Positions 4,307 to 54,834 of a stretch of 64,000 nucleotides of DNA are shown one piece after another. The notes under the pieces are model-generated. The model was not told where the DNA came from and made no database searches. It worked only from the letters and a program-made list of their open reading frames with translations. This DNA is from Candidatus Multivorans sp. GTDB lineage: Bacteria > Acidobacteriota > Thermoanaerobaculia > Multivoradales > Multivoraceae. The DNA lies in assembly GCA_965222875.1 (NCBI GenBank), contig CBDCVC010000002.1, forward strand, positions 802,835 to 866,834, read 5' to 3'. Within the stretch, counting starts at the first letter, position 1, and every line of letters starts with the position of its first letter. A program made the position numbers and the translations under genes.

Positions 4307-4738
4307 CGTTCCACCAGACCGTACCCCTCACGCATGGCCCCGTCGTAGTCCCCAATCAACCGCCACCAATTGGTCAGCGGCCGGCCGCCGTACGACAGTG
4401 TGTGACCGGCGCCCGGAATGTTTTGGGTCCAGTATCGGAACCAGCCCAGGCTCGTGCACCCCCACCGCTCGCAATTCGTCCGCTGCGTGGCGCCCATGCG
4501 GTCGGGACGCCAATCTTCGCAATCGCTCTCGACGAACCGCTGATTCGCCCAGTCGTAGTCTCGCTCGCCGTTCGGCGGAATGTGCGACCACCCACACCGC
4601 GGACTCACGATACGGTGCGAGATGTCACTTCCCACGAATTTGCCCCAGAACAACAGATCGCTCCAGGCATCGTCGGGCGTCGAATCGCGCCCGTCCGCGG
4701 CATTCATCACTGCCTCCAGCTGGTGCATATGGTTTTCG
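4303..4738 (-). pseudogene. C-terminal fragment of a lipoprotein gene disrupted by an ISL3 insertion
   Basis: The ORF 4303..4764 takes its first 9 codons from the IS end and the duplicated target. Once the IS is removed it is in frame with 6087..6676. ATGA overlap with the GH gene start. Confidence 0.6.
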
Positions 4739-6078: not shown

Positions 6079-6086
6079 GGTTTTCG

Positions 6087-6676
6087 ATCGCTTCCGACAG
6101 ACCGCGCTGGTAGTTGTAATGGTACACCGTATAGGTACGGCTGGTCACCGGCAGGTCGAGGGTATCGCGATCGCTGTTGCTCACGTCCCCCCAGGGACCG
6201 GCCATGTTGGACTCCCACAGGTCGATGACGCCGCCGTGATAGCCCCAGATCCACACTTCCTTCACGCCCTCGTCCTCAACCCAGCCGGCGATGTCATGAG
6301 CGGCCGCGATCGCGCCATAGTCCGTCATCGGCACGTCGTGCCCGGGTTTGTCAAAGGTGGGCAGGGGTTCGAGCCGTTCCTCCGTGTGGACCACTTGGTA
6401 GCGCAGGCTGGGAGGTGCGGCCGAGTCGACATAGGCGCGATACCGCGATCCGTCCTCGAGCGCCACGACGAGCGCCGCGGTGAGAGAATCCGTCTTCCGG
6501 CGCGTGTCGGCGATGGACTCACCCCAGTCGCCGGTGACCGATCGATCGACCACGTCACCGTCGCTCGTGGGGAGATAGCGAACCACCACCACCGGGATCT
6601 CCCACGGCGGTCCGCTCGGGCGGTCTTGGTCGGGCGCCGCCGTGCAAGCCGCGAAGAGCATGGTGCACCCCACCAC
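6087..6676 (-). pseudogene. N-terminal fragment of the IS-disrupted lipoprotein gene
   Basis: Starts MVGCTMLFAACTAAPDQ... (signal/lipobox-like). The ORF runs through the TSD into the IS and stops at 6020. It is in frame with 4303..4738 after excision of 4739-6086. Confidence 0.6.
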
Positions 6677-7154
6677 CCGGAGGGCATCGTGCGAGCCGGG
6701 GCGGCGGAGTTGCGGACGATCGGCCTGACGTTGTGACGACAGAAGAAGACTCGCGACGGGGACGGGGCTACGTTACCCGGTGCAGAGTGGAGCCCGCAAC
6801 TCGTCTGACATTCCCCTTCATCTATCCAGCTCTCTTAACATGGCGTCCGCTCCCTTTCACCACGGGTGGAGCCAGGGTGTGCCCCTACACCTGAGGTGAA
6901 TCCCTACGAAGGAAGGAAGTAGAGCCTGAACCTCCAATCGGAACAGGAACTGCGCCGCACACGGCACGCGGCCGGCCGTTTACTGCTCTCCTCTAGCAGC
7001 CCGTGGTAGAAGTCCGTGTCGCACCGAGAGCGGTCAGGCGCCCGTCCGGCAAGGCGCGACGAGGGAGCATATCGGGCCATATTCGACCGAGGAGCAACGA
7101 TGGCGGGCGGGATGCATGGCCGCTCGAATGCAGCGCGACTTCTGCCACGGGCTG

Positions 7155-11225: not shown

Positions 11226-11584
11226 GGTCGTCTCAATGGAGCATTGAAGGCGGGGGGCGACCGAAACGTCGCCGGGTTGGCGAAAACGAGAGCCTGGAGT
11301 CTAGGGCTTTGCGCGCCAGAAGCAAGCTCGCCGCCGGGTCGGCCAGGACGCCTACCGGTCCAACCCGGACGCCTTCCCCGTCGTGAGTCCGCGGTTCACC
11401 GGTTCCGATTGAGCGGGCCCGAGGAGGGTGCCAACGGGCCATCTGCACCGAGTTAATTTACTTGTGTTTATCGAGCACACGTGCTATATTACTTGGCCTC
11501 GTCGGAGGCCCAAGACGGCCGGTTTCACGGCCTCCGACACGCGCCAACCCGGACCGTCAGGTCCCAGCCTAGGGTGCCAACCAA

Positions 11585-13030
11585 ATGATTGACAAACAAA
11601 CCGGCATGAGCAGCAAGGAGCGCATGGGCGAGGAGATCGCGGCGCTCGCCGCGCGCATTGACGCGGCGACCTATGAGCTGCTCGTCCTGATCCGCAAGTT
11701 CGATGAAAAGGAAGGCTGGAACCGCGGCTTCCTCACTTGCGCCCACTGGCTCACCTGGCGGATCGGTCTGGCGCCCGGCGCGGCCCGTGAGCGGGTGCGA
11801 GTCGCCCGGGCTCTGGGCGACCTGCCCTTGATGAGTGCGGCAATGAGCAGGGGCGAGCTCTCCTACTCCAAGGTGAGGGCGCTCACCCGCATCGCCACGC
11901 CCGACACCGAGCAGTCGCTGGTGGACCTGGGCAAGACCGGAACCGCGGCGCAGGTCGAGCGAGTGGTGAGAAGCTGGCGAAGGATCGACCGCACGGTCGA
12001 GGCCTATGACGATGAGCTGCGCGACGCGTCGAGTCACGTGACGACCCACATCGACGAGAACGGCATGTTCGTGATCCGCGGATGTCTGGCGCCGGAGGCG
12101 GGCGAAGTGCTGATGAAGGCACTCGATGCGGCGGGCGACAGGCTCTATGCCGAGCAGCGGGAAGACAAACCACCGGTCGGCAAGATCCGCGCCGATGCGC
12201 TTGCCCTCGTGGCCGAGAGCGCGCTCAGGGCCGGTCTCGATCCGGGATCGAGCGGTGACCGCTACCTGGTCGTGGTTCATGCGAACGAGGCGGAGCTGAC
12301 GGCGCAGGAGAGCGCGACGGCTGACAGCCGGGCTCACGTTCCCGCGGGAACGTCCGGGGCTCGCGTTCCCACGGAAACGCGAGGGGACCGCGACACGGAT
12401 GCGGGCGAGACGCCGGCGTTGCCAGGAGTTGCCAACGGCGCCTGGCTCGGGACCGCCCATGTCCCCGTTTCCGCGGAAACAGCCCGGAGGATCGCCTGCG
12501 ACGCCGGCAGAGTCTCGATGGCCCACCGGAACGGCCAGATCCTGAGCGTTGGCCGCAAGACCCGCACGATTCCGCCGCCGATCCGCCGGGCCCTGGAGTT
12601 TCGCGACCAGGGTTGCCGCTTCCCCGGCTGCACATCGCAGCATTGCGACGCTCACCACATCGTCCACTGGGCCGACGGCGGCGAAACGAAGCTCTCGAAC
12701 CTCGTGCTTCTCTGCCGCCGGCACCACCGCCTGCTCCACGAAGGCGGCTTCACCGTGAAGATGAACGAGGAACGCGCCGTTCAGTTCCGCGACAAACGTG
12801 GTCGGCCGCTGGAGCGCAGCCCGGCGCCGCCACCAGTTGGCTCGTACCCTGCCCGCGAGCTGATCCGCCAGTTGGAGGACGCCGGCATCCTGATCACCGG
12901 CAAGGAGTCAATGCCGGCCTGGGACGGCACACCGATGGACCTGCCCTACGTGATGGAGTGCCTGTGGCGACCGCCGCCGCATCTCGAAGCAGCGGTTGCC
13001 CGGGAACGAAACACATCGCACGCCGCGTAG
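11585..13030 (+). CDS. DUF222 / HNH endonuclease-signature protein (REP13E12-like family)
   Basis: 481 aa with an N-terminal DUF222-like region and a C-terminal HNH region with Cys/His ligands (GCRFPGCTSQHCDAHHIVHWADGGETKLSNLVLLCRRHHRLLHEGG). Confidence 0.8.
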   Translation: MIDKQTGMSSKERMGEEIAALAARIDAATYELLVLIRKFDEKEGWNRGFLTCAHWLTWRIGLAPGAARERVRVARALGDLPLMSAAMSRGELSYSKVRALTRIATPDTEQSLVDLGKTGTAAQVERVVRSWRRIDRTVEAYDDELRDASSHVTTHIDENGMFVIRGCLAPEAGEVLMKALDAAGDRLYAEQREDKPPVGKIRADALALVAESALRAGLDPGSSGDRYLVVVHANEAELTAQESATADSRAHVPAGTSGARVPTETRGDRDTDAGETPALPGVANGAWLGTAHVPVSAETARRIACDAGRVSMAHRNGQILSVGRKTRTIPPPIRRALEFRDQGCRFPGCTSQHCDAHHIVHWADGGETKLSNLVLLCRRHHRLLHEGGFTVKMNEERAVQFRDKRGRPLERSPAPPPVGSYPARELIRQLEDAGILITGKESMPAWDGTPMDLPYVMECLWRPPPHLEAAVARERNTSHAA

Positions 13031-13047
13031 AGGCCAAGGTCCGGCAT

Positions 13048-13076
13048 GACGGCGAGGTCCGGGACCTCGATTCGCC
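13048..13076 (+). repeat. Direct repeat copy 1 (28/29 nt, GACGGCGAGGTCCGGGACCTCGATTCGCC)
   Basis: Matches 13483-13510 with 2 mismatches. Reads in frame as ...DGEVRDLDSP. Confidence 0.7.
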
Positions 13077-13115
13077 ATCCGACGTGGGCTGAGGCGGTAT
13101 TCTCAACCGGCCTCG

Positions 13116-13541
13116 ATGCCAACCCCAACACCCGAAACCGACGCGATCGTCGCGACGCTGCGGTCCGAACTCCACGCCGAGCCGGACATCATCGCCGCCT
13201 ACCTCTACGGGTCCGTCGCCCGCGGCACTCAGCGCCGCGACAGCGATGTCGATGTAGGCCTCCTGCTCGAATCGGATCCTCCGGACACACTCGAGAGCCG
13301 CCGCCTGGACCTCGCCGCCCACATCGAGGAAAGGACGGGGCGACCAGCACAGATCGTCATCCTCAATCGAGCCCCGTGCGACCTCGCCCACCGGGTTCGC
13401 CGAGACGGCAAACTGCTGATCGACCGCGCCCCACGAAGCCTGGTCGCTGGCAGAACTCGCCGACCGCTTTCTCGTTCTGCGCGACGGCGAGATCCGGGAA
13501 CTCGATTCGCTGCCCGGAACGGGCGCAACCTGGAGGACACC
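13116..13541 (+). CDS. Minimal nucleotidyltransferase (MNT, Pol-beta superfamily; candidate orphan antitoxin-type NTase); the frame has no stop and runs on into the downstream VOC gene
   Basis: The GS-x9-10-DxD signature is LYGSVARGTQRRDSDVDVGLL, and the MNT core is complete by about aa 105. The same frame continues without a stop to 13973 through the VOC start codon. Confidence 0.6.
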
Positions 13542-13545
13542 ATGA
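13420..13545 (+). pseudogene. Relic of the 3' end of an ABC-transporter ATPase gene
   Basis: Frame +2 reads STAPHEAWSLAELADRFLVLRDGEIRELDSLPGTGATWRTP*. ADRxxVLRDGxI is the canonical C-terminal ABC ATPase motif. There is no start codon. The stop TGA overlaps the VOC ATG (ATGA). Confidence 0.5.
13483..13510 (+). repeat. Direct repeat copy 2 (GACGGCGAGATCCGGGAACTCGATTCGC)
   Basis: Pairs with 13048-13076. It lies inside the ABC-ATPase relic frame (DGEIRELDSL). Confidence 0.7.
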
Positions 13546-13973
13546 AGAATCCACCTGAAGGCTGGCCGAGAATCTCGTCCGCCCTCTTCTACGATGACGC
13601 GGCGGCCGCGATCGACTGGCTGACCCGGGCGTTCGGATTCGCGGTGCAGGAGCGGGTCGAGGACGAGCAGGGGAGAATCGTCCATTCGCAGCTCGTCCTG
13701 GACGGCGGTCTCATCATGGTCGGACAGACGGATCTGCAACCCGACCGGGCGTACCAGCAGTCTCCACAGGCGGTCGCCGGCGCGAACACGCAGTCGCTGG
13801 CCGTGTACGTCGACGACGCCGACGCGCACTGCGAGCGGGCGCGGGCGGCCGGCGCCGCGATCACGATCGAGCCCGCGACTCAGGACTACGGCGAGAGCTA
13901 CTGGGTCGACCGGAGCTACGGCGCCCGGGACCTTGAGGGACACTATTGGTGGTTCCTCCAGCGCCTGCGCTGA
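13542..13973 (+). CDS. VOC family protein (glyoxalase/bleomycin-resistance fold)
   Basis: RBS GGAGGACACC precedes the ATG. MKNPPEGWPRISSALFYDDAAAAIDWLTRAFGF...GESYWVDRSYGARDLEGHYWWF is the typical VOC/PhnB-like pattern. Confidence 0.75.
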   Translation: MKNPPEGWPRISSALFYDDAAAAIDWLTRAFGFAVQERVEDEQGRIVHSQLVLDGGLIMVGQTDLQPDRAYQQSPQAVAGANTQSLAVYVDDADAHCERARAAGAAITIEPATQDYGESYWVDRSYGARDLEGHYWWFLQRLR

Positions 13974-13982
13974 CGGCGCCCC

Positions 13983-14693
13983 TCACTCCCCATCCACCCC
14001 CTCGTTCAGGATCTTCAGGTACTCGCTGTAGACGTACGCCCGGTTCCGGCTGAAGCCGGTGATCTCCCGGACGAGGCCTGCGCGTTCCAGGAGTCTCAGC
14101 GCAGCCGAGACGGTCGGGAACGCGAGTCCGGTGCGCTTGCAGGTTTCCGGGATGGAGAGGATTGGACGTTCCTGTAGGGCTTCGTGGACCCGTAGTGCGG
14201 AGCCGGCGCGCCGGCCCTCCGTCGCGAGACGTTGCCGGTCGGCCGTGAATCGCTCGGTGAGGCGACCCACAGTGGCGGCGGCGTTCTCGGCCGTCTCCTG
14301 CACGCCTTGGAGGAAGAACGCCAGCCAAGCCTCCCAATCGCCGGTGTGCCGAACACGGTCGAGCAGCTCGTAGTAGCGCTCTCGATGGCGCTTGAAGTAC
14401 ACGCTGAGGTAGAGCAGCGGTTGGCGCAGTAGGCCCGCCTCGCACAGCAACAGCGTGATCAGCAGACGGCCGACGCGGCCGTTGCCGTCGAGAAACGGGT
14501 GAATCGTCTCGAACTGGACGTGAGCCAGACCAGCACGCATCAACGCCGGCAGGCCGTCGTCCTTCGCGTGCAGAAAGCCCTCGAGTTCGCCCATGCAATC
14601 GGGCACGGCGAGGTGCGGCGGCGGCACGAAGACTGCGTTGCCCGGGCGTACGGGGAACAGCAGACCCTGTTCGGCAGGTTCAGCCTTACAGCG
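13983..14693 (-). pseudogene. Fic/Doc family protein, 5'-truncated (N-terminal about 150 aa missing)
   Basis: Fic motif HPFLDGNGRVGR. The frame is open upstream only to a TGA at 14694-14696; it reads ...GNAVFVPPPHLAVPDCMGELEGFLH..., matching the Fic region just before the motif, but the expected N-terminal helices are absent. The first possible start is GTG at 14627. Confidence 0.7.
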
Positions 14694-40075: not shown

Positions 40076-43000
40076 TTAGGGGCGGCAACTATCAGTGAAC
40101 GCACCACTGTCCGTAATGGCCGGTGCCGGTGGACCGGGCTCCTTCGTGTATGTCCAAATCGTGTCCGTGTCCGTGTCGGTGACCGTGATGTCGAGCCCCA
40201 GGTCCGTGGCGGCAGCCGAGTACACCCAGTGGTTGCCGTTCACGGCACAACCGTCGAGCACTTTGATCAGCATCTCCCAGTTGTTCGGATCGAAGAAGTA
40301 GAAGAGGCCGGAGTTGTTCGTCCCGCCGGGCACCATGCTCGCTGCACCCTCTTGACCATCCGCCGTGGACCAGTCCACCTTCACCTCGAAGCGGCCATCG
40401 ACGAGGCACAGGGACGAACCCGCTTCCCCGCAACCCGAATGGGAGGCGGCAGGGTGGGTCAGCGACTCCGACGCGATCGGGGCGACTGACGAGGAGCAGG
40501 CCTGTGGGAATGCCGTGGCGTCCGTGATGGCGGGAGCCGGTTGTCCGGGCTCGTTTCGGTACTCTCTGAAGCCGCCAGTGCTGGTGTTCGTGACCCGGAT
40601 CGAGTAGCCGAGGTCCGTGGTCGAGGCTCCGTACACCCAGTGGTTGCCGTTGACTGTGCAGCCGTCCAACACCTTGACAAGGATCTCCCAGTTGTCCTCG
40701 TCGAAGAACCGGAACAGCCCGGAGTCCTCCGTGGCCTTGGGCACCACCACAGCCGGACCGCTTCTGGCGTCGCTGGTCCACCACTTCGCCTCCACCTTGT
40801 AGAGACCGTCGTGGAGACAGAGAGTCAGGTCGCTCGCCTCGCACGGTCGGCCGGGGGTCGGATCCGGATCTGGGTCCGGGTCGGGTTCAGGGTCCGTCGT
40901 GGAGATGTTGGCGGAGAACTGCGACCGTCCACCCGTGATGTGGCTCCAGTAATCCGCTACCTGGTCGCGGAATCGAGCTTGCAGAGCCAGCCCGTCGCGG
41001 TCAGGCGATGTGCCCGGTTCCAGCAGATAGACGAAGCCCGCGTTGAAGTCCTTTTTGGCGTTCGCCGCCGAGGGTTTCCGCATGCCGTGGACATCCAGGA
41101 CCTGCTGGATCGACACATTCTCACGCACACCTGTGTACCGCATGCCGGACTGCCTCCGCCCATTCCTGAGGATGAAGAAATCGGGCACTTCGCCTACGTC
41201 GGCGAGCCCCATCAGGTACAGGTCGAGCCAGGAGAAGCCGCCGTTCCACACGCCGTTCAGCTCCGTGAATGTGCCGTCATCGTTGCTGCGCCAATCTCGC
41301 CCTCCCATCAAGGATCTCGGACCGGCCTGGTCCGGGTGCCAGGGGAAGGCCGCGGGTGCATGAAGCCATGCCTGCCAGTGGCACAGGCAACCGTCCCCGA
41401 CCAGCGGTGACGACCGACCATTGCGGTTCCGGGAGACATAGGCGAGCCACAAGTGCGAGAACTCGTGCGCGAACAACCACAGCCCGTAGTCGTAGCGGCT
41501 GTCTTCCCTGACGCCACTCCGGTACACGCGGTCTGAGTAGATCCAGACGGGGGAGACCCACCTGCCCTTGAGTCGCTTTGCACCGCAGGGGGGACCGTCA
41601 ATGGTGCCGCCACGCCCCACGCCCGTCACGGGATCGTTCCCGAAGAACGGCCTGAACGGTGTCGTGGCTTCTTGCTTGTCGGTGCGAAACTGGCTGTGGA
41701 AGACCAACAGATCGAACTCGTCGCCCAAGGAGTTGGCCACGTGACATGCAATGCTGTCGAGATTCCCCACCGTCGCGTAGTTGAACACTTCGTACTGGTA
41801 CTGGGCGGACAGGTTGCTGGTCTCCGACAGGTTCGTGTTGGGGCCGGTCGCACTCGGCAGTCGGAAGAACGCCACTTCGGACGATTCCCCCTCGACGAAG
41901 CTCCCGCCGGCAAAATCAGACGAATTGGCGAACACCGCTACGGGCACTCCCTCAAGGCCAGTGATGTTCGCGAGCAACGCGATGCGGCTGGGGTCTGTCG
42001 TCTCTACGACTCCCGCAACGCCCGCGCCGGATGCCAGCGTCAGCCCCGCATCCGTCACGTAGAGCCGCCAGTCGAAGTCCGAGTCCTCCGAGCCGGTCCA
42101 CCAGGGCTGCTCCACGTCGAAGAACAGGCGGTACACGTACAGGTGCCCCGATGGCGGCACCGGGATCGGCTCTCTCATCGCGAACTCGACGATCACGCCA
42201 CCCGTACCCGACTCCTGCAGTGTCACCTTCAGCAAGTCGAGGTAGCCCGGCAGGCCGGTGTTCCGGCCGTGGCCTATCTCCGTGATGAGGGCTCCCCGCG
42301 TCTTCCTCTCGGGTCCCAGCAGCCCGACAATGCCGTCGCGGAAGGAGATGCTGTTGTCGTAGTTGAGGCGGACACTTCCATCCGCCGCCAGGACGGCCTG
42401 GAAGCGGGTCGGCGTCTGTGGAGCCACACCATGCACGTAGTAAACCGGCTCGGTAGTGGTCCAGGTGACGACCACCCGGTCGACCTGGTGGGCGACGTGC
42501 TGCTTTGCTCCGTGTTGGTCGTAGAACCCACCGAGCAGCGGCTTGAAAAGAGCACTGATGGCCGTCTCATCCACCAGCTTGTGGTTGAGCTGCTGTATCG
42601 TCTCAAATCGGAGCCCGGTGTTCACGTAGTCGTACTGCAGCGGCTTACCGAACGTGATGATGCCCCGGCGACTGACGAACAACGAAGTCCACGTTCTGCC
42701 GGCGAACTCGAAATCGAAGCCCTGGAACGACACCTCCTCACCGGAGCGGACTCGCTCGCCGATGTTCCGCTCCCAGGCAACCGACTGGACCGACCGGAAG
42801 TAGCCGCCTTGCCCATCCGGTGTGAACACCACGGTGCGCCCGCTCAAGTCGAAGAGGTTGGCATCAGTGATGTCGCTCGGCGCGAGTTTCAGGATGATCT
42901 GGTTGTCCGTTGTGGTCCGTACGGTTCTCGACGCCGAATCCACCCGGACGGGGCCATCGTTCACCAGATCGCCCAGGTTGAGGAAGTCGACGGCACCCGG

Positions 43001-43186
43001 TTCAGTGAGATCGACGGGTGGGAGTCGCATGAGCGTGTCCCGGATCTCCTCCGATGCCGACTCGGCGGTACCCGGGACGTTGCCCACCACCGTGAGCACA
43101 GACGCCAGCACCAGCCCGACGCGCAACCGTCTCACGGAGCTCCGCCTCGAATCGTCAAGCGTAGATGATAGCCATGACGCGATCAC
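40076..43186 (-). CDS. Large secreted multidomain protein with a HExxH zinc-metallopeptidase motif and two tandem C-terminal Cys-bounded domains
   Basis: HExxH is [12 protein letters not shown] (PD)n linker reads [11 protein letters not shown]. Two roughly 115-aa repeats each begin C-x-L-C-L-xDGxF-V-xW and contain [21 protein letters not shown]...ITD..AF...C. Confidence 0.6.
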
Positions 43187-43530: not shown

Positions 43531-43590
43531 CATCCGTGCGCCCGCTGACGGGCGCACGGACTGGTTCACGGGTCGCGCGGATCGGCCCAC
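43531..43590 (+). repeat. Conserved palindromic hairpin element, copy B
   Basis: CCGTGCGCCCG-CTGA-CGGGCGCACGG (stem 43535-43560), then GACTGGTTCACGGGTCGCGCGGATCGG. It lies 11 bp outside the left IR of the IS1182-family element. Confidence 0.6.
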
Positions 43591-43611
43591 CCCGGTGCCG
43601 GACCTTCTGCC

Positions 43612-45254
43612 GCGCTAGCAGTCTGTCGGACTTCTGCGCGTTGATCTGGGGGTCTGGTGGTTTGTCGGTTAGTTTCGGTGTTCAAGGGAGGTCGACAGGT
43701 ATGCCGAAGTTCATCGAGGCTCACCGCAACCAGCCGTTCCTGCTTCCTCCGGACCTTCGGGACTGGATGCCGGAAGACGATCTGGCTCATTTCGTGGTGG
43801 AGGCGGTGGAACGTGTGCCGATGGAGTCGTTCGTGGTGAACGAGCGGGGTACGGGTTCGGCTCAGTACCCGCCTCGTCTGATGCTGGCTCTTCTGGTGTA
43901 CTGCTACGCGAACGGCGTATTCGGTTCACGCCGAGTCGAGCGTGCGACGTATCGGGATGTCGGGGTGCGTTACCTGGCGGCGAATCTGCATCCGGACCAC
44001 GACACGATCTGCACGTTTCGTCGCAACAACGTGGATGCGATTGCTTCGGCGTTCGAGCAGGTGCTGTTGATGGCGCGGGAGTTGAAGCTGTTGCGGGTGG
44101 GGATGGTGAGCGTGGACGGCACGAAGGTGGACGCGAACGCGAGCAAGCGGAACAGTCTGCGTTACGACCGTGCGATGGAGTTGCGGGCGCAGTTGCAGGA
44201 GGAGATCGCGGGTCTGTTGGAGGAGGCGGAGCGTGCGGACGGCAAGGGCGTTGCCGACCAGGAGGGCTTGCCGGACGAGTTGAAGCGTCGCCGGCGGTTG
44301 AAGGAGAAGCTGGACGAGGCATGCGAGACGACGCTGGAGCGGCGTGCGCTGAGGCGTGCGGAGCGTGAGCGTGTCGAGTACGAGCGCAGGTTGGCGGAGC
44401 GAGAGGAGCGGCCGCCCAATCGTCGTAGCCGCAAGCCGAAGCCTCCGCGCGAGGAGCCGGAGGCGAAGAAGCAGATCAACCTGACGGACAAGGACAGCGG
44501 CCTGATGAAGAAGAGTCGGCGCAGCGAGTACCGCCAGGCGTACAACGCTCAGGCGGTGGTGGACGCCGAGGGGAGTCAGTTGGTGCTGGGCGCCCGCGTC
44601 AGCGGCTGCGCGAACGACAAGCACGAACTGGTCGCGGACGTGGACTCGATGCCGGAGTCGGTGGGAACGGTCGAGCGAGCGCTGGCGGACAACAGTTTCG
44701 CGACTGGCTGCGAGGTGAAGACGCTCGAGGACCGGGGCATCGACGTCCTGGTGTCGACCCGGAAGGAGGACCGTCGCCACCAGCACGACTTCCGGCCCGA
44801 GACTGAGGCGAAGCCCCGGAAAGAGCCGAAATCCGAATGGGTGCGGAAGATGCAGGAGAAGCTGGCCCAGGACGACAACCGCAAGAAGTACAGTCTGCGC
44901 AAGCAGACGGTGGAACCGGTATTCGGGATCGTCAAACACGTCCTGGGATTCCGCCAGTTTCACCTGCGCGAGCTGACGAAGGTGGACGGCGAGTGGAAGC
45001 TCGTCATGCTGGCCTACAACTGCAAGCGCCTGCACAACCTGCTCGCCGCCTGAGCGCCCGTGGGCGCCTCGTCTTCCCTGCGAAAACCGCCTCAACGGCC
45101 GTCGGGCGCGAGCACACGCTCTGCCATCGGCCCCACGAACACGAAATAGCCGATCCGAACGCGACACGATCGCTCACGGCACCACGCCCGAACCGCCTCT
45201 CAGGCTTCGTCGCCCGCCTCCCCGCCGTCCCAAGTCCGACAGACTGCTAGCGCG
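43612..45254. mobile_element. IS1182-family insertion sequence, about 1.64 kb
   Basis: Perfect 23-bp terminal inverted repeats CGCGCTAGCAGTCTGTCGGACTT at 43612-43634, with the reverse complement at 45232-45254. It carries a single transposase gene. No clear TSD was found. Confidence 0.8.
43701..45053 (+). CDS. IS1182-family (IS5-like) transposase
   Basis: RBS GGGAGG. MPKFIEAHRNQPFLLPPDLRDWMPEDDLAHFV is the characteristic IS1182 N-terminus. A central charged coiled region; the DDE-bearing region with C-terminal ...KLVMLAYNCKRLHNLLAA. Confidence 0.9.
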   Translation: MPKFIEAHRNQPFLLPPDLRDWMPEDDLAHFVVEAVERVPMESFVVNERGTGSAQYPPRLMLALLVYCYANGVFGSRRVERATYRDVGVRYLAANLHPDHDTICTFRRNNVDAIASAFEQVLLMARELKLLRVGMVSVDGTKVDANASKRNSLRYDRAMELRAQLQEEIAGLLEEAERADGKGVADQEGLPDELKRRRRLKEKLDEACETTLERRALRRAERERVEYERRLAEREERPPNRRSRKPKPPREEPEAKKQINLTDKDSGLMKKSRRSEYRQAYNAQAVVDAEGSQLVLGARVSGCANDKHELVADVDSMPESVGTVERALADNSFATGCEVKTLEDRGIDVLVSTRKEDRRHQHDFRPETEAKPRKEPKSEWVRKMQEKLAQDDNRKKYSLRKQTVEPVFGIVKHVLGFRQFHLRELTKVDGEWKLVMLAYNCKRLHNLLAA

Positions 45255-50033: not shown

Positions 50034-52823
50034 CTAGAAGTCCAACGTCAGGCGCAGCGTCAGCCGCCGCGGCAGCAGGAAGTTCAGAGGTACGAGATTG
50101 CCGTTCCGGTAGCCGGCCCTCTGCCACTGGTCCCAGCCATCGTCGTTGAGTACGTTCTGGACCTGCAGGTCGACCCCCAACGCGCGGCCGTTCCCGAGCG
50201 AGAACGAGCGCCCGAGGCCGAGGTCCAGGAAGGTGTTGCCGGGCAGCCGGACGCCGTCCTCGTGCGGGTGCAGAGCGATCTCGGTCAACCCCTGGTTCAA
50301 GCGCACGCGCGTATGGACCGTATACGGCCGGCCGTCCTGGACCCTGAGCACTCCGACCGCCCTCAGATTCCAGGGCAGCTCGACATGCCCCTGGGCCAGG
50401 AACATCAGCTTCCGATCCGCCTGGTAGAGCCCGTCCCCGTTCAGATGATGATTCGGATCGGTGCCCTCCTGGTTGCTGAAGAAGGGCTGACCCTGGATCT
50501 GGTTCAGAGGGCGCGTGTTTCGTCCCGTCGACTTCGAGTAGCCGAGAGAAGTGTTCAGCCCCCAGCGCCCGACCTGGCGTTTCCTGAGGGTCAGGAAGAA
50601 ACCCTCGTAGTCCTGGTAGTACTTCGCATCGGGCGGCGCGTTCGCCCCGGGACCCGGGCTGTTGCCCTTCCGGCGCGTCGGCTCCTCGATGATGCTGAAC
50701 AGAGTCATGGTCTCGCCCGTTTCCGGGTTGACGAAGGGCACATTCTCGTAGACGCCGTCATCCAGGATGTGCCAGCCGATCAGGTTCGTGCCTTCCTTGA
50801 TGACCACCTCGGCACCGATTGTGAGGGTGTCGCTGAGCTGCTGCTCGTAGCCCACGGCGTACTGGTCGAACTCGGGGGGCTTCATGTTCGGGTCCGGCGG
50901 ATCGAGGTTCTCGTCCGTGACCGTTCGGAAGTAGGTGAAGGGGCCGTACCGATTGGCGCTGAAGCCGAACTTCGCCTCCGGCCGGTTGGGATGGGGCCCG
51001 TTCCACATTGCCGTGTTGTTGCTCTCGAAGTACTTGCCGTAGGACACCCGCAGTACGCCCTGCTTCGAGCCCTCGCCGACCTGGTAGGCCAGCCCGACGC
51101 GCGGAGAGATGGTCTCCCAGTCCACGACGTCCCTGTAGGCGGGATGCACGTTCCCGGTCTTGACGCCCTGGTTCTCGCCGCCGAAGTGCTGCAAGAGCTC
51201 AGGGAAGGGCGGGATGTCGCCGTTGTCCTGGTCGTAGCGGACGCCCAGGTTCAGAGTCAGCCTGTCGCCCACGCTCCACGAGTCGTCCGCGAAGATCCCC
51301 AGCCCGGTCGCGTCGCTGCCGTAGTAGTGGGGTCGGCGAGCGTAGATGAAGTAGTACGGCGCACCGTAGAAGTTGTACAGGTAGTAGTACTTGCCGCTGG
51401 CGCCGGGATAGATCGCGGCGGTCTGGATCGAAGCGTCGGTGAACTGGACGCCGAATTTGAACTCGTGGCTGCCGCCGAGGTCGTCCGCGAAGTGCGTCAA
51501 CTTCGCGCTCGCCCTGGTCATTTCCGGCGGGTAGTCGTACGGATATTTCACCCCGCCGACCGTGGTCGGCACCGGTGCCGTGTAGTCGATGACCGGCGCG
51601 GCGATGCTTCCGGTCACCGAGGCGACGCGGTCGTAGTTCTCAAACGCGCCGACGCTGACCTCGAAGAAGGTCCTGTCCGTGACCACGGACTGCCAGCCCA
51701 GCTTCCATCCCGGCTTGATTCCGAACTCGTGCGATGTCGCGTCCTCGTCCGTGAAGGGATCCGCGGTCTGCTGCCAGTCGTAGTCCTCGTACTGGCCGCT
51801 GAACGTCAGGGTATTCGACTCAGTGAGCGACCAGTCGAGCTTGAGGTTGTAGCGCTCCCACTTGTCCGGCCGGATCAACTCGCGTACCTGACCGGGCTCC
51901 CCCAACGCGTCCTCCTTGTACTCCAGCGACACGTAGTACCACAACTTGTCCCGCTCGAAGGGGCCGCCGAGCGCCAGGGTGTAGTTCTGGAAGCTGTCTC
52001 GATAGAAACCGGTCTCCTCGCCACCCAGCCCTGCCGCCTTGGGACCCTCGGCGGTCGTGCCCGCGTACTGACCGAAGTAGTTCAGACGACCGCTCAGGTC
52101 GTTGGTCCCGGACTTCGTGACCACATTGATGGCCGCGCCCGACATGCCTCCGTACTCGGCCGGCGCGCCCACTCCCAGCACCTGAATCTCGGCGATCGTG
52201 TCGGGGTTGATCCACCACCACACGTTGCTGTTCTCGTGAAGAGAGGCATTGAGACCGTCGACGTTCCAGGAGTTCGCGGCCATGCCGCCGCCGTAGGCCG
52301 AGTAGCGGTACTCCGCGTAGGTTTGGTCGCGGCCCATGTTGCTCATGCCCTTGGCGAATCCCGCGTAGTCCTGGAAGTTGCGGTTCGTGGGCAGGGGGTC
52401 GATGAACTCCTCCGGCAGGTTCGTGCTGATGACATTGCTCGTCACGTCGACGATCGGCCTCTCCGAGGTCACCGTGATCGTCTCTTCGGCCGCGACGAGG
52501 CGGAGCACCAGATTCACCGTACTGGTCGCCGAGATCGAGATGCGCACGTCCTCGACCGTTTCGTCCGCGAACCCTTCGAGCGTTCCCGTTACGGTGACAG
52601 TGCCCGGCGGCAGCGCCGTCACCAGGTACTCCCCGGTGGCCCCGGTGGTCGTCGCGCGCTCACCACGCACGATGTCCCCTGTCACCTCCACCAGGACTCC
52701 CGGCAGCGCGTCGCCGTTCGCGTCGCGAACCTCTCCGCGCACCGTTCCGACGTTCTGGGCCAGGGCCGGCGTCGCCGCCAGCAAGAGAAACGAGACTGCA
52801 ACCAGGAATCGAACCTTGGACAT
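50034..52823 (-). CDS. TonB-dependent receptor with N-terminal carboxypeptidase-regulatory-like domain
   Basis: The start is taken at MSKVRFLVAVSFLLLAATPALAQN (SD GGAGGG), not at the longer ORF-track start. N-terminal CarbopepD_reg-like segment VRGEVRDANGDALPGVLVEV. The C-terminal residue is F. Confidence 0.75.
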   Translation of the reverse strand: MSKVRFLVAVSFLLLAATPALAQNVGTVRGEVRDANGDALPGVLVEVTGDIVRGERATTTGATGEYLVTALPPGTVTVTGTLEGFADETVEDVRISISATSTVNLVLRLVAAEETITVTSERPIVDVTSNVISTNLPEEFIDPLPTNRNFQDYAGFAKGMSNMGRDQTYAEYRYSAYGGGMAANSWNVDGLNASLHENSNVWWWINPDTIAEIQVLGVGAPAEYGGMSGAAINVVTKSGTNDLSGRLNYFGQYAGTTAEGPKAAGLGGEETGFYRDSFQNYTLALGGPFERDKLWYYVSLEYKEDALGEPGQVRELIRPDKWERYNLKLDWSLTESNTLTFSGQYEDYDWQQTADPFTDEDATSHEFGIKPGWKLGWQSVVTDRTFFEVSVGAFENYDRVASVTGSIAAPVIDYTAPVPTTVGGVKYPYDYPPEMTRASAKLTHFADDLGGSHEFKFGVQFTDASIQTAAIYPGASGKYYYLYNFYGAPYYFIYARRPHYYGSDATGLGIFADDSWSVGDRLTLNLGVRYDQDNGDIPPFPELLQHFGGENQGVKTGNVHPAYRDVVDWETISPRVGLAYQVGEGSKQGVLRVSYGKYFESNNTAMWNGPHPNRPEAKFGFSANRYGPFTYFRTVTDENLDPPDPNMKPPEFDQYAVGYEQQLSDTLTIGAEVVIKEGTNLIGWHILDDGVYENVPFVNPETGETMTLFSIIEEPTRRKGNSPGPGANAPPDAKYYQDYEGFFLTLRKRQVGRWGLNTSLGYSKSTGRNTRPLNQIQGQPFFSNQEGTDPNHHLNGDGLYQADRKLMFLAQGHVELPWNLRAVGVLRVQDGRPYTVHTRVRLNQGLTEIALHPHEDGVRLPGNTFLDLGLGRSFSLGNGRALGVDLQVQNVLNDDGWDQWQRAGYRNGNLVPLNFLLPRRLTLRLTLDF

Positions 52824-53009
52824 ACCAACCCTCCGATGTTGTCTAGAGCATTGCAAACTATATACTCTCTGAGCGCGAAGGACCGAGAGAAAATGGGATT
52901 TTGTTAGAAAAGCTTTGCGCGTAGCGCCCGACGAACCACAACCATCGAGAAACCGGCTCCCCTTGACAAGGAGACTGGCCGACGATTCCGAAAGAGGGAG
53001 ATTCCTGGA

Positions 53010-54389
53010 ATGAGCGAGACGAGCAGACCCAGGACAAGCAATCGCCGCGACTGCATCAAGACCATGGCGGCCGCCGGCGGCGCCGCGGCTCTGGCGAGCT
53101 GCACACCAGGCACAGAAGGTGCACTGGGAGCCTCTGACGATCAGGGATCGGCAGACGTGGAAGCGCGACACTTCCCGGAGGGGTACCCGCCCTATCCGTC
53201 GGCCGAGGCCACCGAGACCGCCTTCGCGGAGCACGTGTCCCCGGGGAACGTGGGGGTCATGAGAGCGTTCGGCACCGAGCTTCACTTCGGCCAGCGCGAG
53301 GGCGCGCGCGTCCAGGACGCCTTCACCGGGAAGTGGTACTGGGATTGCCACCGCAACGGCACGCTCTACAACCTCGGCCACCGCAACCCGGACATCATCG
53401 CGGCGGTCAAGGAGGCACTGCACCAGCTCGAGATCGGCAACCTGCTGCTGGTTTCCGGTTACAAGGCGAAGGCGGCCGAAAAGCTGATTGTCAGCACCGA
53501 TGGCGCACTGACCGGGGTCACCTACACGGCCAGCGGCGCCGAGTCCACCGAGGTCGCGATCCGCGCCACTCGAGGCATGACCCGGCGTACGAAGCTCGTT
53601 TCGATCGAGGCTTCCTACCATGGCCACACCTGCTTCGCGATGGCCGCCGGCGACAGCGCCGACAACCACGAGCGCTATCTGCTCGACTTCGACGATTTCG
53701 TCTTCGTGCCGTACAACGATGTCGACGCCATGGCAGCGGCAGTCGATGACGCGACCGCGGCCGTAATGATCGAGTCCTCACCGGCGCAGGCGGGTTTCCC
53801 GGTGCCCGACCCCGGCTACTTCCAGGCCGTCATGGACATCTGCCGGAAGCACGGCGCCAAGCTGATTGTCGACGAGGTGCAAACGGGCCTCGGCGCGACC
53901 GGAAAGTTCTGGTTCTGGCAACACCACGGGATCGTCCCGGACATCATGACGACGGCGAAGGGTCTCGGCGGCGGCATCCTCGCCAACGCGGCCGTACTGC
54001 TCGCCCCCGAGGTCAAGGAGTGGTTCTTCGACACGGCGATACCCCACTCCTCGACTTTCGGCGGCAACGAACTGGGCTGCGTGGCGACCGCCAAGGTCTG
54101 CGATCTGACCATGGCGCCAGCCTTCCTGGAACATGTGAACGCGCTCTCCGAGCAGTTCGCCGAGGGTCTGCGCGGCGGTCCCTACCAAGTAAACCAGCAC
54201 GGACTGTGCATGGGCATCCTCTCCCAGGAAATGGGCAAGATGGAGATGACGGCTAGGCTGTTCGAGGCCGGAATCTTCACCGTGCCCGCCTGGTACACGG
54301 ACGGCGGAGTGGAGTTCCGGCCCATCCTGACGCTCACCGAGAACGAGGCGGACGAGATCATCGGCATCTTCCGGGATACCGTCGGATAA
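53010..54389 (+). CDS. Class-III (ornithine/acetylornithine/GABA-type) PLP aminotransferase with a Tat signal and lipobox
   Basis: Twin-arginine motif SNRRDCIKT, then a hydrophobic stretch and LASC. The mature part has the AT-III fold-type I pattern (SGAESTEVAIR, DEVQTGLGATG, the TTAKGLGGG lysine region). Confidence 0.75.
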   Translation: MSETSRPRTSNRRDCIKTMAAAGGAAALASCTPGTEGALGASDDQGSADVEARHFPEGYPPYPSAEATETAFAEHVSPGNVGVMRAFGTELHFGQREGARVQDAFTGKWYWDCHRNGTLYNLGHRNPDIIAAVKEALHQLEIGNLLLVSGYKAKAAEKLIVSTDGALTGVTYTASGAESTEVAIRATRGMTRRTKLVSIEASYHGHTCFAMAAGDSADNHERYLLDFDDFVFVPYNDVDAMAAAVDDATAAVMIESSPAQAGFPVPDPGYFQAVMDICRKHGAKLIVDEVQTGLGATGKFWFWQHHGIVPDIMTTAKGLGGGILANAAVLLAPEVKEWFFDTAIPHSSTFGGNELGCVATAKVCDLTMAPAFLEHVNALSEQFAEGLRGGPYQVNQHGLCMGILSQEMGKMEMTARLFEAGIFTVPAWYTDGGVEFRPILTLTENEADEIIGIFRDTVG

Positions 54390-54423
54390 GCGCCGCCTCG
54401 ACGGCGCCAGGCCCGCGGCCCAC

Positions 54424-54687
54424 TTGACAGCCGCTCCATTCCTCCCCTACGCTCCCCGGCACGCTTTGCCGCACGGCAGCAAACCCATACCCAGCAGGAC
54501 ACTCGAACCAGCCATGACGCGCTTGGCACCAGGATGGCCTCGACGAAGTGCGCGGACGCCTCTTCGCGGCGCCCGGCCCGTCGTCGTCGCCCGCGTCCTG
54601 TCGCGGCCGATCGTGGACTTCGCCGGTGCAGCCGGCCTCCTGCTACTGGTTCTGATTCTGGTTCTTGCCGTCCAGGGGGCTAACTAG
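54424..54687 (+). CDS. Small hypothetical protein with a C-terminal transmembrane segment (low confidence)
   Basis: The C-terminus is FAGAAGLLLLVLILVLAVQGAN. It is followed directly by an intrinsic terminator. Confidence 0.3.
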   Translation: MTAAPFLPYAPRHALPHGSKPIPSRTLEPAMTRLAPGWPRRSARTPLRGARPVVVARVLSRPIVDFAGAAGLLLLVLILVLAVQGAN

Positions 54688-54716
54688 GCGCACCAACCGG
54701 AACCTGACCGACCTAG

Positions 54717-54747
54717 AGCCCCCAGCACCGCCTGGGGGCTTTTTTGG
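54717..54747 (+). terminator. Rho-independent terminator
   Basis: AGCCCCCAG-CACCGC-CTGGGGGCT followed by TTTTTT. Confidence 0.75.
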
Positions 54748-54787
54748 TTCGGCGCCCCGGAATCCACCATGAAACACCAAACGGCTA

Positions 54788-54834
54788 TTGAACCACCCGT
54801 AGGACTTGTTGAACCACCCACATGACTATTGAAC
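54788..54834 (+). promoter_or_regulatory. Three phased direct repeats TTGAACCACCC / TTGAACCACCC / TTGAAC (spacing 21 and 20 bp) covering the ilvE start
   Basis: Copies at 54788-54798, 54809-54819 and 54829-54834. There is no SD in front of the ilvE ATG at 54822. Confidence 0.45.

Follow-up and report, generated by a model that had tools for sequence, protein, structure and literature searches.

PLP-dependent transamination is usually regarded as a cytoplasmic process. In fluorescent Pseudomonas, the PLP enzymes PvdN and PtaA have been described as Tat-exported, folded and with their cofactor, and as active in the periplasm in pyoverdine tailoring; how PLP is regenerated in that compartment is an open question for both (PMC6206403). 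These two were the only described periplasmic PLP transaminases retrieved in a literature search, which yielded nothing relevant on class-III aminotransferases with twin-arginine signals, on receptor-aminotransferase clusters or on Ca. Multivorans. Tat-dependent lipoproteins have been described in Streptomyces and haloarchaea. To our knowledge, none of them is an aminotransferase and none originates from Acidobacteriota.

Here, a class-III aminotransferase precursor gene was analysed in a 64,000-nucleotide stretch of DNA from Candidatus Multivorans sp. (Acidobacteriota), referred to as the window. The features of the locus are collected in Table 1. Taken together, the sequence evidence points to what is probably a Tat-exported, lipid-anchored omega-amine transaminase, which would act on an amine imported by the neighbouring receptor.

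Table 1. Features of the aminotransferase locus, with positions counted in the window
Feature	Position	Strand	Description or basis
TonB-dependent receptor, Oar-like, divergent	50034..52823	-	929 aa; Sec signal, CarboxypepD_reg domain, beta-barrel
Intergenic spacer common to the aminotransferase and divergent receptor genes	52824..53009		186 bp, 51.6% GC
Promoter-like site TTGTCT-16-TATACT	52839..52866	+	match to consensus only
Class-III (fold-type I) PLP aminotransferase precursor gene	53010..54389 (including stop)	+	459 aa; ORF
Signal peptide through lipobox Cys (residues 1-31)	53010..53102	+	n-region 1-17, h-region 18-30, Cys31
Twin-arginine motif S10-N-R12-R13-D-C-I-K17 (residues 10-17)	53037..53060	+	
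Lipobox L28-A-S-C31	53091..53102	+	PROSITE-style lipobox pattern match
Disordered, mildly acidic tether (residues 32-58, 27 aa)	53103..53183	+	pLDDT, orthologue variability
Catalytic domain (residues 59-459)	53184..54386	+	invariant columns in alignment A1
Terminator-like hairpin and T-run, between the aminotransferase gene and ilvE	54715..54742	+	pattern match only

The locus and its receptor

The preliminary description placed the start of the gene at 52824, which is the first base of the spacer; the gene itself begins at 53010. Its divergent TonB-dependent receptor was borne out, as was the spacer shared by the two genes, which measures 186 bp (185 bp in the preliminary description). GC content of the spacer is 51.6%, versus 67% for the window. 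The spacer sequence is conserved in part among genomes sharing the gene arrangement of the window, and the promoter-like block was kept in most of these (L012-L015 and L027) and diverged in L019 and L026. A shared regulatory site in the spacer was considered and set aside, the evidence consisting of the consensus promoter match and clade-level conservation, with no regulator assignable. Neither the spacer nor the 3′ gap gave an Rfam match to an RNA element at E ≤ 1. The hairpin preceding ilvE suggests that the aminotransferase gene may be monocistronic, the count of terminator-like hairpins found being not above that in shuffled sequence. An operon with the downstream ilvE-ilvBNC-leuA genes is unlikely, given the 432-bp gap and this hairpin; the ilv genes belong to ordinary biosynthesis.

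A receptor of the same orthogroup was located within 3.1 kb of the aminotransferase gene in 11 of the 15 assessable Ca. Multivorans genomes, in two arrangements. In seven genomes plus the window, the receptor orthologue adjoins the aminotransferase gene; four more genomes, in which the surrounding genes differ, carry a copy of 67-68% identity 3 kb upstream. Within the 412 kb examined, this receptor had no homologues other than these adjacent and 3-kb-upstream copies. Conservation of the receptor-aminotransferase pair, raised earlier as a point to check, thus held in these 11 genomes and at no fewer than 10 loci in Gammaproteobacteria, where the gene for a Plug-type receptor stops 17-110 bp short of the aminotransferase gene, and did not extend to four of the 15 (L016, L017, L018 and L025), which carry no receptor at the aminotransferase locus.

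The gammaproteobacterial cluster, which is without a described function, resembles the window in its aminotransferase (58-67% identical, with the KWYWDCHR motif) and in the adjoining receptor gene, and its members P0004-P0006 and P0009 share a Tat signal plus lipobox with the window protein. The receptors themselves are of unrelated types, being Plug-type and co-directional in the gammaproteobacterial cluster and Oar-like and divergent in the window. The cluster comprises genes for a TPP enzyme, a second class-III aminotransferase, Dabb, a membrane protein, an AraC regulator, the receptor and the aminotransferase, and further holds a ureohydrolase and/or GMC oxidoreductase. The window contains neither the ureohydrolase nor the remaining genes of the cluster: following tblastn of all cluster proteins against it, only ilvB (matching the TPP enzyme) and the aminotransferase were recovered, and a ureohydrolase, GMC oxidoreductase, PQQ protein and haem/copper-like protein were sought there and not found. 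A taurine pathway (Xsc/Tpa) was rejected for the cluster because its TPP enzyme scored 184-190 bits, far under the Xsc cut-offs of 620-676.

In five lineages, a signal-bearing (Sec) ureohydrolase of the guanidinobutyrase/guanidinopropionase/agmatinase kind lies directly 3′ of the aminotransferase gene. The locus of one Tat-bearing member reads receptor, aminotransferase and Cupin_7, and that of its signal-less Streptomyces relative reads aminotransferase, Cupin_7 and MFS transporter; at these Cupin_7 loci, the uptake partners match the predicted locations of the exported and the cytoplasmic relative. Unlike the window protein, many close homologues in the receptor-linked gammaproteobacterial cluster have no signal (e.g., L028, with a receptor-aminotransferase gap of 66 bp). 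Export is thus a variable trait of the family rather than a requirement of the pathway, which could, judging from these gene sets, run with a cytoplasmic enzyme. The coupling of periplasmic transamination to uptake, as originally proposed, gains from the recurrence of the receptor pairing in two phyla and loses from these signal-less homologues.

Alternatively, the exported, lipid-anchored enzyme may tailor or recycle a compound that the cell itself makes for its envelope or for secretion, with the neighbouring receptor irrelevant. We regard this as unlikely, although the four related genomes mentioned above keep the aminotransferase without a receptor at the locus, Tat-bearing P0074, P0078 and P0009 have no receptor within 10 kb, and the described periplasmic PLP transaminases, PtaA and PvdN, act in biosynthetic tailoring (PMC6206403). 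Receptor adjacency recurs in two Ca. Multivorans arrangements and at least 10 gammaproteobacterial loci, which argues against an irrelevant receptor. The genes that surround the aminotransferase in relatives are of a catabolic kind, encoding a ureohydrolase, a GMC oxidoreductase, an acyl-CoA dehydrogenase and an AraC regulator similar to QhpR, which regulates amine dehydrogenase, and no NRPS/PKS-type or other such biosynthetic genes were seen near the aminotransferase gene in the window.

Signal peptide, tether and start codon

The twin-arginine motif SNRRDCIK reported in the preliminary description is present and close to the consensus S/T-R-R-x-F-L-K, within an n-region (residues 1-17) of net charge +3. 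The accompanying hydrophobic h-region (T18-S30, TMAAAGGAAALAS) was also recognised, though it is weakly hydrophobic and of Ala/Gly type. Its Kyte-Doolittle mean hydropathy over 13 residues is 1.23, versus 2.55 for the Sec signal of the neighbouring receptor and 2.5-3.0 for Sec signals in the same loci. Tat signals typically show low h-region hydropathy. The LASC lipobox follows directly and was retrieved by pattern match ([LVI][ASTVI][GAS]C at the h-region end, with the Cys within residues 15-35); LA[SG]C is invariant across 16 related genomes. Cys31 is predicted to be the first mature residue and to be lipidated. The residue at +2 is Thr in the window and Thr or Ala overall, never Asp, and by the E. 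coli +2 rule the protein would reside in the outer membrane.

Profile searches gave 17.6 bits for NCBIfam TIGR01409 TAT_signal_seq (cut-off 16.7) and 16.9 bits (E = 0.006) for Pfam PF10518 TAT_signal, the latter under its gathering score of 22.7. We infer that the aminotransferase would be transported by Tat and lipidated, with the Tat and lipoprotein-processing machinery assumed to be present in the host; tatA, tatC, lgt and lspA were not seen in the roughly 0.9 Mb of sequence examined, nor was any TatA-like ORF. When 412 kb of related DNA was scanned in six frames for coding-like ORFs with a Tat-like pattern, only aminotransferase orthologues and one antisense artefact were returned, and no other Tat substrates were found in the examined Ca. 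Multivorans DNA, used as an internal control. The acidic linker proposed to follow the lipobox was retained in mildly acidic form (six acidic residues and one basic) and shortened from about 40 to 27 residues.

Among 16 species-representative Ca. Multivorans genomes, the signal is near-identical and the linker variable. Pooled pN/pS was lowest in the mature part (0.088), intermediate in the signal (residues 9-31; 0.148) and highest in the linker (0.343), and codons 20-31 of the window and L001 differ by eight synonymous and no non-synonymous changes. The signal is under purifying selection (pN/pS about 0.15). Across the family, twin-arginine signals were detected in 20 of 120 representatives (44-91% identical), and the signal-bearing members occupy many basal branches of an NJ tree. 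Their signals end in a lipobox in some and in an AxA-type sequence in others, and the RR pair is aligned in all 19 of the 19 Tat-bearing rows of alignment A1. Since the c-region varies while RR is constant, it is the twin arginines that are conserved.

It is improbable that the protein is instead exported unfolded by Sec as a lipoprotein with incidental twin arginines, acquiring PLP outside the cytoplasm. A lipobox by itself suffices for Sec/SPII, and the Pfam TAT_signal score is under threshold; however, RR is the one element kept across 20 divergent family clusters in which the c-region alternates between lipobox and AxA, the h-region is much less hydrophobic than the Sec signals of the same loci, and the TIGR01409 cut-off is passed. 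Moreover, dimeric enzymes that contain a cofactor are classical Tat cargo (PMC6206403).

Translation could also start at the GTG of codon 50, giving a 410-aa cytoplasmic enzyme and leaving the signal as an untranslated leader or minor isoform. For untranslated sequence, a pN/pS of 0.148 with pS of up to 0.6 over codons 9-31 is unexpected. Codon 50 is ATG in 10 orthologues, is preceded by AGGGA 9 nt upstream and lies near the position where signal-less homologues begin, and one NCBI annotation uses it (orthologue P0125, starting at Met50, with a 406-aa product without signal); in six orthologues, however, it encodes Ile, Leu or Lys. A better Shine-Dalgarno-like sequence, GAGGGAG, is located in the spacer 9 nt 5′ of the ATG at 53010. 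We judge this start quite improbable, and as the origin of the main product it was rejected, given the selection on codons 9-31 and the lack of a conserved start at codon 50. The better downstream start envisaged in the preliminary description is thus disfavoured, and the upstream start is considered real because the signal is conserved and under purifying selection. In public annotation, the family goes by no more specific names than 'aminotransferase class III-fold' and 'aspartate aminotransferase family protein', and the signal is sometimes trimmed.

Catalytic domain and enzyme class

Pfam PF00202 Aminotran_3 matched residues 95-457 with 223.5 bits (gathering 30.5) and E = 5e-66, over profile positions 15-402 of 403. 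An AlphaFold model was obtained with pLDDT 83 and pTM 0.82, confident from about residue 57 and below pLDDT 50 for residues 1-54. With this near full-length match and confident model, the complete AT-III fold described earlier was upheld. The family-conserved fold begins at YPPYPSA (residue 59), and the family motif KWYWDCHR is located at residues 108-115. Leading matches, both in structure and in sequence, were ArgD, YgjG and PigE, with a Foldseek probability of 1.00 and a target-normalised TM-score of up to 0.91 with ArgD.

Alignment A1 shows no variation at E255, D288 (in DEVQTG), K317 and R437, and HMMER aligned these residues with their counterparts in M. tuberculosis ArgD (7nn1) and E. 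coli YgjG (4uox). K317 is the catalytic (Schiff-base) Lys, encoded at 53958-53960. In class-III aminotransferases, the Asp of DEVQTG contacts the pyridine N; R437 aligns with the Arg to which, in this class, the alpha-carboxylate of the keto/amino acid co-substrate binds. At the level of sequence, the catalytic core is intact.

No model in the NCBIfam scan of the aminotransferase reached its cut-off. The acetylornithine models TIGR00707 and NF002874 scored 223.9 (cut-off 410) and 218.9 (cut-off 457), and the putrescine models NF008570 and TIGR03372 scored 185.4 (cut-off 612) and 155.8 (cut-off 659). Orthology to ArgD or to a putrescine aminotransferase was rejected, every NCBIfam cut-off being missed. 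The 'xHGxT' motif reads YHGHT (His206), the position being S or H across the family. In acetylornithine, ornithine and GABA aminotransferases, the Arg of FHGRT binds the substrate by its distal carboxylate; this Arg is not present in the window enzyme, which has His206 instead.

There is a slim chance that the exported class-III-fold protein is a racemase, epimerase or lyase, which would require no periplasmic amino acceptor, and the acceptor problem would vanish. The class-III fold includes racemases and lyases, an amino acid amide racemase was retrieved at rank 49 of the structural matches, the PbfA lyase is among the NCBIfam models, and no NCBIfam equivalog cut-off was reached; yet every one of the best matches, whether by sequence or by structure, is a transaminase, and R437, aligned with the Arg for the co-substrate alpha-carboxylate, is invariant.

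Proposed role and comparison with known systems

In the mechanism that we consider probable, the class-III aminotransferase would fold and bind PLP in the cytoplasm and would cross the inner membrane in folded form via the Tat pathway. Following cleavage of the signal at the lipobox, lipidated Cys31 would tether the enzyme to a membrane through a flexible linker of about 27 residues. In the periplasm, it would act as an omega-amine (terminal-amine) transaminase of the ArgD/putrescine-aminotransferase type. As to substrate class, reaction direction and amino acceptor identity, we infer that a primary amine entering via the TonB-dependent outer-membrane transporter would be converted to the matching aldehyde or ketone, with the amino group handed to an alpha-keto acid; the likely substrate would be a diamine, polyamine, omega-amino acid or de-guanidinated compound. 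Of the substrates suggested in the preliminary description, a polyamine or guanidino-amine fits best, given the ureohydrolase neighbours and the ArgD and putrescine aminotransferase matches, and nothing in the analysis points to an amino-sugar or siderophore.

That the Oar-like transporter moves or presents the lipoprotein at the surface, as in Oar-PopC or SusC-SusD, rather than importing a substrate, is extremely unlikely: the window receptor has Oar-type architecture and M. xanthus needs Oar to secrete protein across its outer membrane, as described with PopC (PMC6434023), but the partner receptors in Gammaproteobacteria are of the ordinary Plug type, several of the aminotransferases paired with them are cytoplasmic, and Oar-like transporters are not known to carry lipoprotein cargo.

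A ping-pong transaminase in the periplasm would need a source of keto-acid acceptor there, which counts against the proposed mechanism; PtaA faces the same difficulty (PMC6206403).

More broadly, and tentatively, the widespread and previously undescribed KWYWDCHR subfamily may ancestrally be a Tat-exported holoenzyme, lipid-anchored in several lineages, which together with a TonB-dependent transporter and often a secreted ureohydrolase for guanidino compounds would constitute a periplasmic nitrogen-stripping module. If so, this module would take urea or amino groups off imported amines before these cross the inner membrane, and periplasmic PLP chemistry would extend beyond siderophore tailoring to nutrient catabolism in Acidobacteriota and marine Gammaproteobacteria. 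With a conserved Tat-plus-lipobox signal kept by selection on a class-III enzyme, periplasmic amine deamination would prove to be more general in bacteria, a case made stronger by the recurrence of the transporter linkage in two phyla. It sharpens the questions of the keto-acid source for periplasmic transaminases and of cofactor recycling without cytoplasmic salvage. In addition, the protein is a candidate natural Tat-lipoprotein cargo in diderm Acidobacteriota, where protein sorting is barely studied, and the signal-bearing and signal-less relatives in one cluster provide a natural experiment on the relocation of a pathway step.

Compared with known systems, the likeness to PvdN and PtaA is functional (Tat export plus PLP) and not familial, the familial side being judged on PvdN chains: no PvdN chain was among the PDB sequence matches to the aminotransferase at E ≤ 1e-30, and PvdN is presumably a class-V-like enzyme. 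PvdN and PtaA are soluble and biosynthetic, whereas the window enzyme is predicted to be lipid-anchored and would be linked to a receptor and to catabolism. By sequence and structure, the best match is ArgD (M. tuberculosis, 7nn1; TIGR00707), with E = 1e-46 and 31% identity. ArgD shares the PLP-binding Lys, the Asp and the C-terminal Arg with the window enzyme; it has the FHGRT Arg in place of His206 and is without the KWYWDCHR loop. Unlike ArgD, the window enzyme has a signal peptide, and its gene lies outside an arginine-biosynthesis context. YgjG/PatA (4uox) and the transaminase domain of PigE (4ppm), both cytoplasmic and acting on terminal amines, have the same fold as the model, including the extra N-terminal helices, with query-normalised TM-scores of 0.80-0.81 over 417-438 columns and 25-27% identity; the residue after HG in 'xHGxT' is Lys in YgjG and His in the window enzyme. 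With the Tat lipoproteins of Streptomyces and haloarchaea, finally, the window protein shares the combination of a twin-arginine n-region and a lipobox c-region.

Gene, spacer and signal peptide

The preliminary description started the aminotransferase gene at position 52824. The gene is present, and this position marks the beginning of the 186-bp spacer towards the receptor gene (51.6% GC vs 67% for the window), the true start being 53010, with GAGGGAG 9 nt 5′ of the ATG. A SNF2-type helicase gene lies upstream of the receptor gene. On the 3′ side, the gap carrying a terminator-like hairpin and an 87-aa ORF of doubtful reality is followed by ilvE-ilvB-ilvN-ilvC-leuA; it gave no Rfam match and could represent a 3′ UTR or an ilv leader. 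Elsewhere in the window, a 1036-aa ORF is adjoined by a DDE transposase gene, with a restriction-modification methylase gene farther from it.

Features of the window and of loci around aminotransferase relatives in other genomes (L-numbers)
Locus	Feature	Coordinates	Strand	Remark
Window	Eco57I-type restriction-modification methylase	7155-11225	-	1356 aa
Window	ORF, coding-like composition	40076-43186	-	1036 aa; without Pfam match at E <= 1e-5
Window	DDE transposase	43536-45053	+	
Window	TonB-dependent receptor	50034-52823	-	929 aa; divergent from aminotransferase gene
Window	Aminotransferase ORF	53010-54389	+	459 residues
Window	Codon 50	53157-53159		
Window	Aminotransferase-ilvE gap	54390-54821		432 bp
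Window	ORF of doubtful reality	54424-54687		87 aa
Window	Terminator-like hairpin	54715-54742		
L001	Receptor homologue	4321-6994		two frames, residues 19-283 and 285-912
L001	Protein with Sec-type signal	11473-12804		443 aa; downstream of aminotransferase
L002	Ureohydrolase, PPIase-like protein, metal transporter	11384-14473		
L037	Family member, Parvularcula MAG	462-1751		
L042	Family member, Ningiella sp. W23	8924-11134		

The N-terminus consists, in order, of MSETSRPRTSNRRDCIKTMAAAGGAAALASC, TPGTEGALGASDDQGSADVEARHFPEG and YPPYPSA... S10-N-R-R-D-C-I-K17 agrees with the Tat consensus, mean hydropathy is 1.23 over the 13 residues of the h-region (vs 2.55 in the Sec signal of the window receptor), and L28-A-S-C31 agrees with the lipobox pattern, with the Cys inside the allowed range. 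Using NCBIfam TAT_signal_seq, the score was above the cut-off (17.6 vs 16.7 bits), and using Pfam TAT_signal it was below (16.9 vs 22.7 bits, E = 0.006). Comparative data provide the strongest evidence that the signal is real. By a scan of species-representative genomes, the window was placed in Candidatus Multivorans (Acidobacteriota, Thermoanaerobaculia). Across 16 related genomes, S[SN]RRDCI[KR]T[MI]AAAGGAAALA[SG]C[TA]P is near-invariant and the linker after it varies freely; codons 20-31 differ from those of an 87%-identical orthologue (L001) by eight synonymous and no non-synonymous changes. Pooled over the 16 orthologues, residues 9-31 had a pN/pS of 0.148, compared with 0.343 in the linker and 0.088 in the mature enzyme, which indicates that the signal region is translated under constraint. 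When 412 kb of related DNA were scanned in six frames for the Tat-like pattern, only aminotransferase orthologues and one antisense artefact were returned. The twin-arginine motif, h-region and lipobox proposed earlier were thus borne out by consensus fit, conservation and pN/pS, the linker being present at roughly 27 rather than about 40 residues; conservation and selection give good support to the predicted Tat export and lipid anchoring.

Translation from codon 50 may yield a minor cytoplasmic isoform by internal initiation. This codon, GTG in the window and ATG in 10 of the 16 orthologues, is located just ahead of the folded domain with AGGGA 9 nt 5′, and the NCBI annotation of one orthologue (P0125, 406 aa) begins there. 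In the other six, however, it encodes Ile, Leu or Lys, and a start at codon 50 cannot account for the constraint on residues 9-31; a better downstream start, raised in the preliminary description as a case against the signal, is disfavoured on both counts.

Enzyme domain and spread of the Tat signal

Pfam Aminotran_3 matched residues 95-457 (223.5 bits). No NCBIfam model reached its cut-off, those for acetylornithine and putrescine aminotransferases being nearest, and the protein is a class-III aminotransferase outside every curated subfamily. Among solved structures, those closest in sequence are ArgD of M. tuberculosis (7nn1) and the E. coli putrescine aminotransferase YgjG (4uox). An AlphaFold model built with 29 homologues as input (pLDDT 83, pTM 0.82) was confident from about residue 57; residues 1-54 had pLDDT <50, their sole short helix spanning the RR pair and h-region. 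Top Foldseek matches were ArgD, YgjG and PigE (query-normalised TM-score 0.78-0.81). Catalytic Lys317, Asp288 (DEVQTG), Glu255 and Arg437 are kept in the family, KWYWDCHR is an invariant family-specific loop, and the Arg of the ArgD FHGRT motif is His in the window protein. Profile, structure, catalytic residues and loop together identify the protein as an intact, uncharacterised branch of the ArgD/ornithine/putrescine aminotransferase subgroup. Public records name the protein 'aminotransferase class III-fold PLP-dependent enzyme' or 'aspartate aminotransferase family protein' and leave the signal unmentioned. The 90%-identity cluster of P0001 also lists P0127, a beta-lactamase-like protein of 365 aa that has no relation to the aminotransferase; its placement there is probably a clustering artefact.

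Twin-arginine signals occur in 20 of the best 120 family representatives, eight of them also having a lipobox, at identities to the window protein as low as 44%. The RR pair is aligned in all Tat-bearing members, with a c-region that ends in a lipobox in some and in an AxA-type site in others, which argues that Tat targeting specifically, rather than just a signal of some kind, is the conserved element. In a neighbour-joining tree, many of the basal branches in the KWYWDC clade lead to Tat-bearing members and signal-less groups are nested among these, a topology compatible with an ancient signal that was lost repeatedly. Some signal-less members retain RR-containing, Ala-rich N-terminal remnants. 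The N-termini of P0025, P0027, P0031, P0029 and P0030, without a scored signal (e.g., MKSRRRTETIVAAAAIS), resemble decayed twin-arginine signals, as would be expected if this gammaproteobacterial clade had lost export. In more distant members the motif has R-K variants: SRKAFLK in Ningiella sp. W23, where the frame is open upstream into alpha/beta-hydrolase-like sequence, and TRKDFL followed by lipobox LSAC in the Parvularcula MAG.

Receptor pairing and gene clusters

With a Sec signal, a CarboxypepD_reg domain and a beta-barrel, the window receptor belongs to the Oar-like type, and its gene is a presence/absence polymorphism among Ca. Multivorans genomes. The order helicase, receptor, divergent aminotransferase and ilvE is found in the window and seven genomes (arrangement A). 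Four genomes (L016, L017, L018, L025) lack the receptor at this locus (arrangement B), the helicase gene directly abutting the aminotransferase gene with a spacer unrelated to that of the window. In four genomes and one metagenome contig (arrangement C), the neighbourhood differs and a receptor of 67-68% identity is encoded 3 kb upstream of the aminotransferase, beyond genes for a PQQ-repeat protein, glutaredoxin and BolA. No further receptor homologue was found in the 412 kb examined. The association thus survives rearrangement, yet is not obligatory. In the 87%-identical orthologue locus (L001), the two-frame receptor homologue reflects a frameshift, which either marks a pseudogene or stems from an error in the long-read contig, which has 3x coverage. 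The 443-aa protein there, adjoining a ROK-family gene, carries a CxxCH haem motif, weak Pfam haem-binding/cytochrome c matches (E ~0.007, below gathering) and His-rich motifs (HHVVG, HSH) reminiscent of copper type-II monooxygenases.

Gammaproteobacterial family members (58-67% identical to the window protein) lie in a conserved cluster encoding a TPP enzyme, a second class-III aminotransferase, a Dabb protein, a membrane protein and an AraC regulator (best match QhpR, regulator of an amine dehydrogenase), followed by a Plug-type TonB-dependent receptor, the family aminotransferase, and a ureohydrolase and/or GMC oxidoreductase. None of the other cluster genes was found in the window. In at least 10 loci, among them those of two more distant Tat-bearing members, the receptor gene ends 17-110 bp ahead of the aminotransferase gene. 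The ureohydrolase, closest to guanidinopropionase, guanidinobutyrase and agmatinase-type enzymes, had a Sec-type signal in all cases checked. The aminotransferase itself varies, with Tat signal and lipobox in P0005 and P0006, and no signal at L028, where the spacer is too short to hide one. On another branch, a Tat-bearing member has the order receptor, aminotransferase, Cupin_7, and its signal-less Streptomyces relative aminotransferase, Cupin_7, MFS transporter, so that the uptake partner fits the predicted enzyme compartment. At L002, a signal-bearing ureohydrolase, with 'probable agmatinase 2' (7esr, a nickel-dependent guanidine hydrolase) among its best PDB matches, precedes a PPIase-like protein and a metal transporter of the HupE/UreJ type, a hint of a module that would deliver metal to a periplasmic enzyme.

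Predicted role and known periplasmic PLP enzymes

In the proposed mechanism, the aminotransferase would fold and load PLP in the cytoplasm, be exported folded via Tat, be lipidated at Cys31 and, held on a tether of ~27 residues, transaminate a terminal amine supplied by the outer-membrane transporter. In E. coli, the +2 residue determines lipoprotein destination, a rule not established for Acidobacteriota; here it is Thr or Ala, never Asp, which by analogy would place the enzyme on the inner face of the outer membrane, near the transporter. Judging by the closest characterised enzymes, the replacement of the distal-carboxylate Arg and the ureohydrolase that accompanies relatives, we infer a diamine or polyamine, an omega-amino acid or a de-guanidination product as candidate substrate. 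The earlier idea of periplasmic transamination coupled to outer-membrane uptake finds support in gene linkage at the family level, the coupling being facultative in the Ca. Multivorans lineage. A low-probability alternative is that the transporter acts on the aminotransferase lipoprotein itself and not on its substrate, given that Oar of M. xanthus, namesake of the window receptor type, is required for protein secretion (PMC6434023).

A literature search for class-III aminotransferases with twin-arginine signals found nothing, and one for periplasmic Tat-exported PLP transaminases found only PvdN and PtaA, of Pseudomonas pyoverdine tailoring. Like PtaA (PMC6206403), the window protein, known from sequence, is predicted to be exported via Tat as a PLP holoenzyme; it appears, however, to fall outside that family, no PvdN chain being among its PDB sequence matches at E <= 1e-30. 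Periplasmic Tat-exported PLP transaminases are already known, and the window aminotransferase would be a class-III variant.
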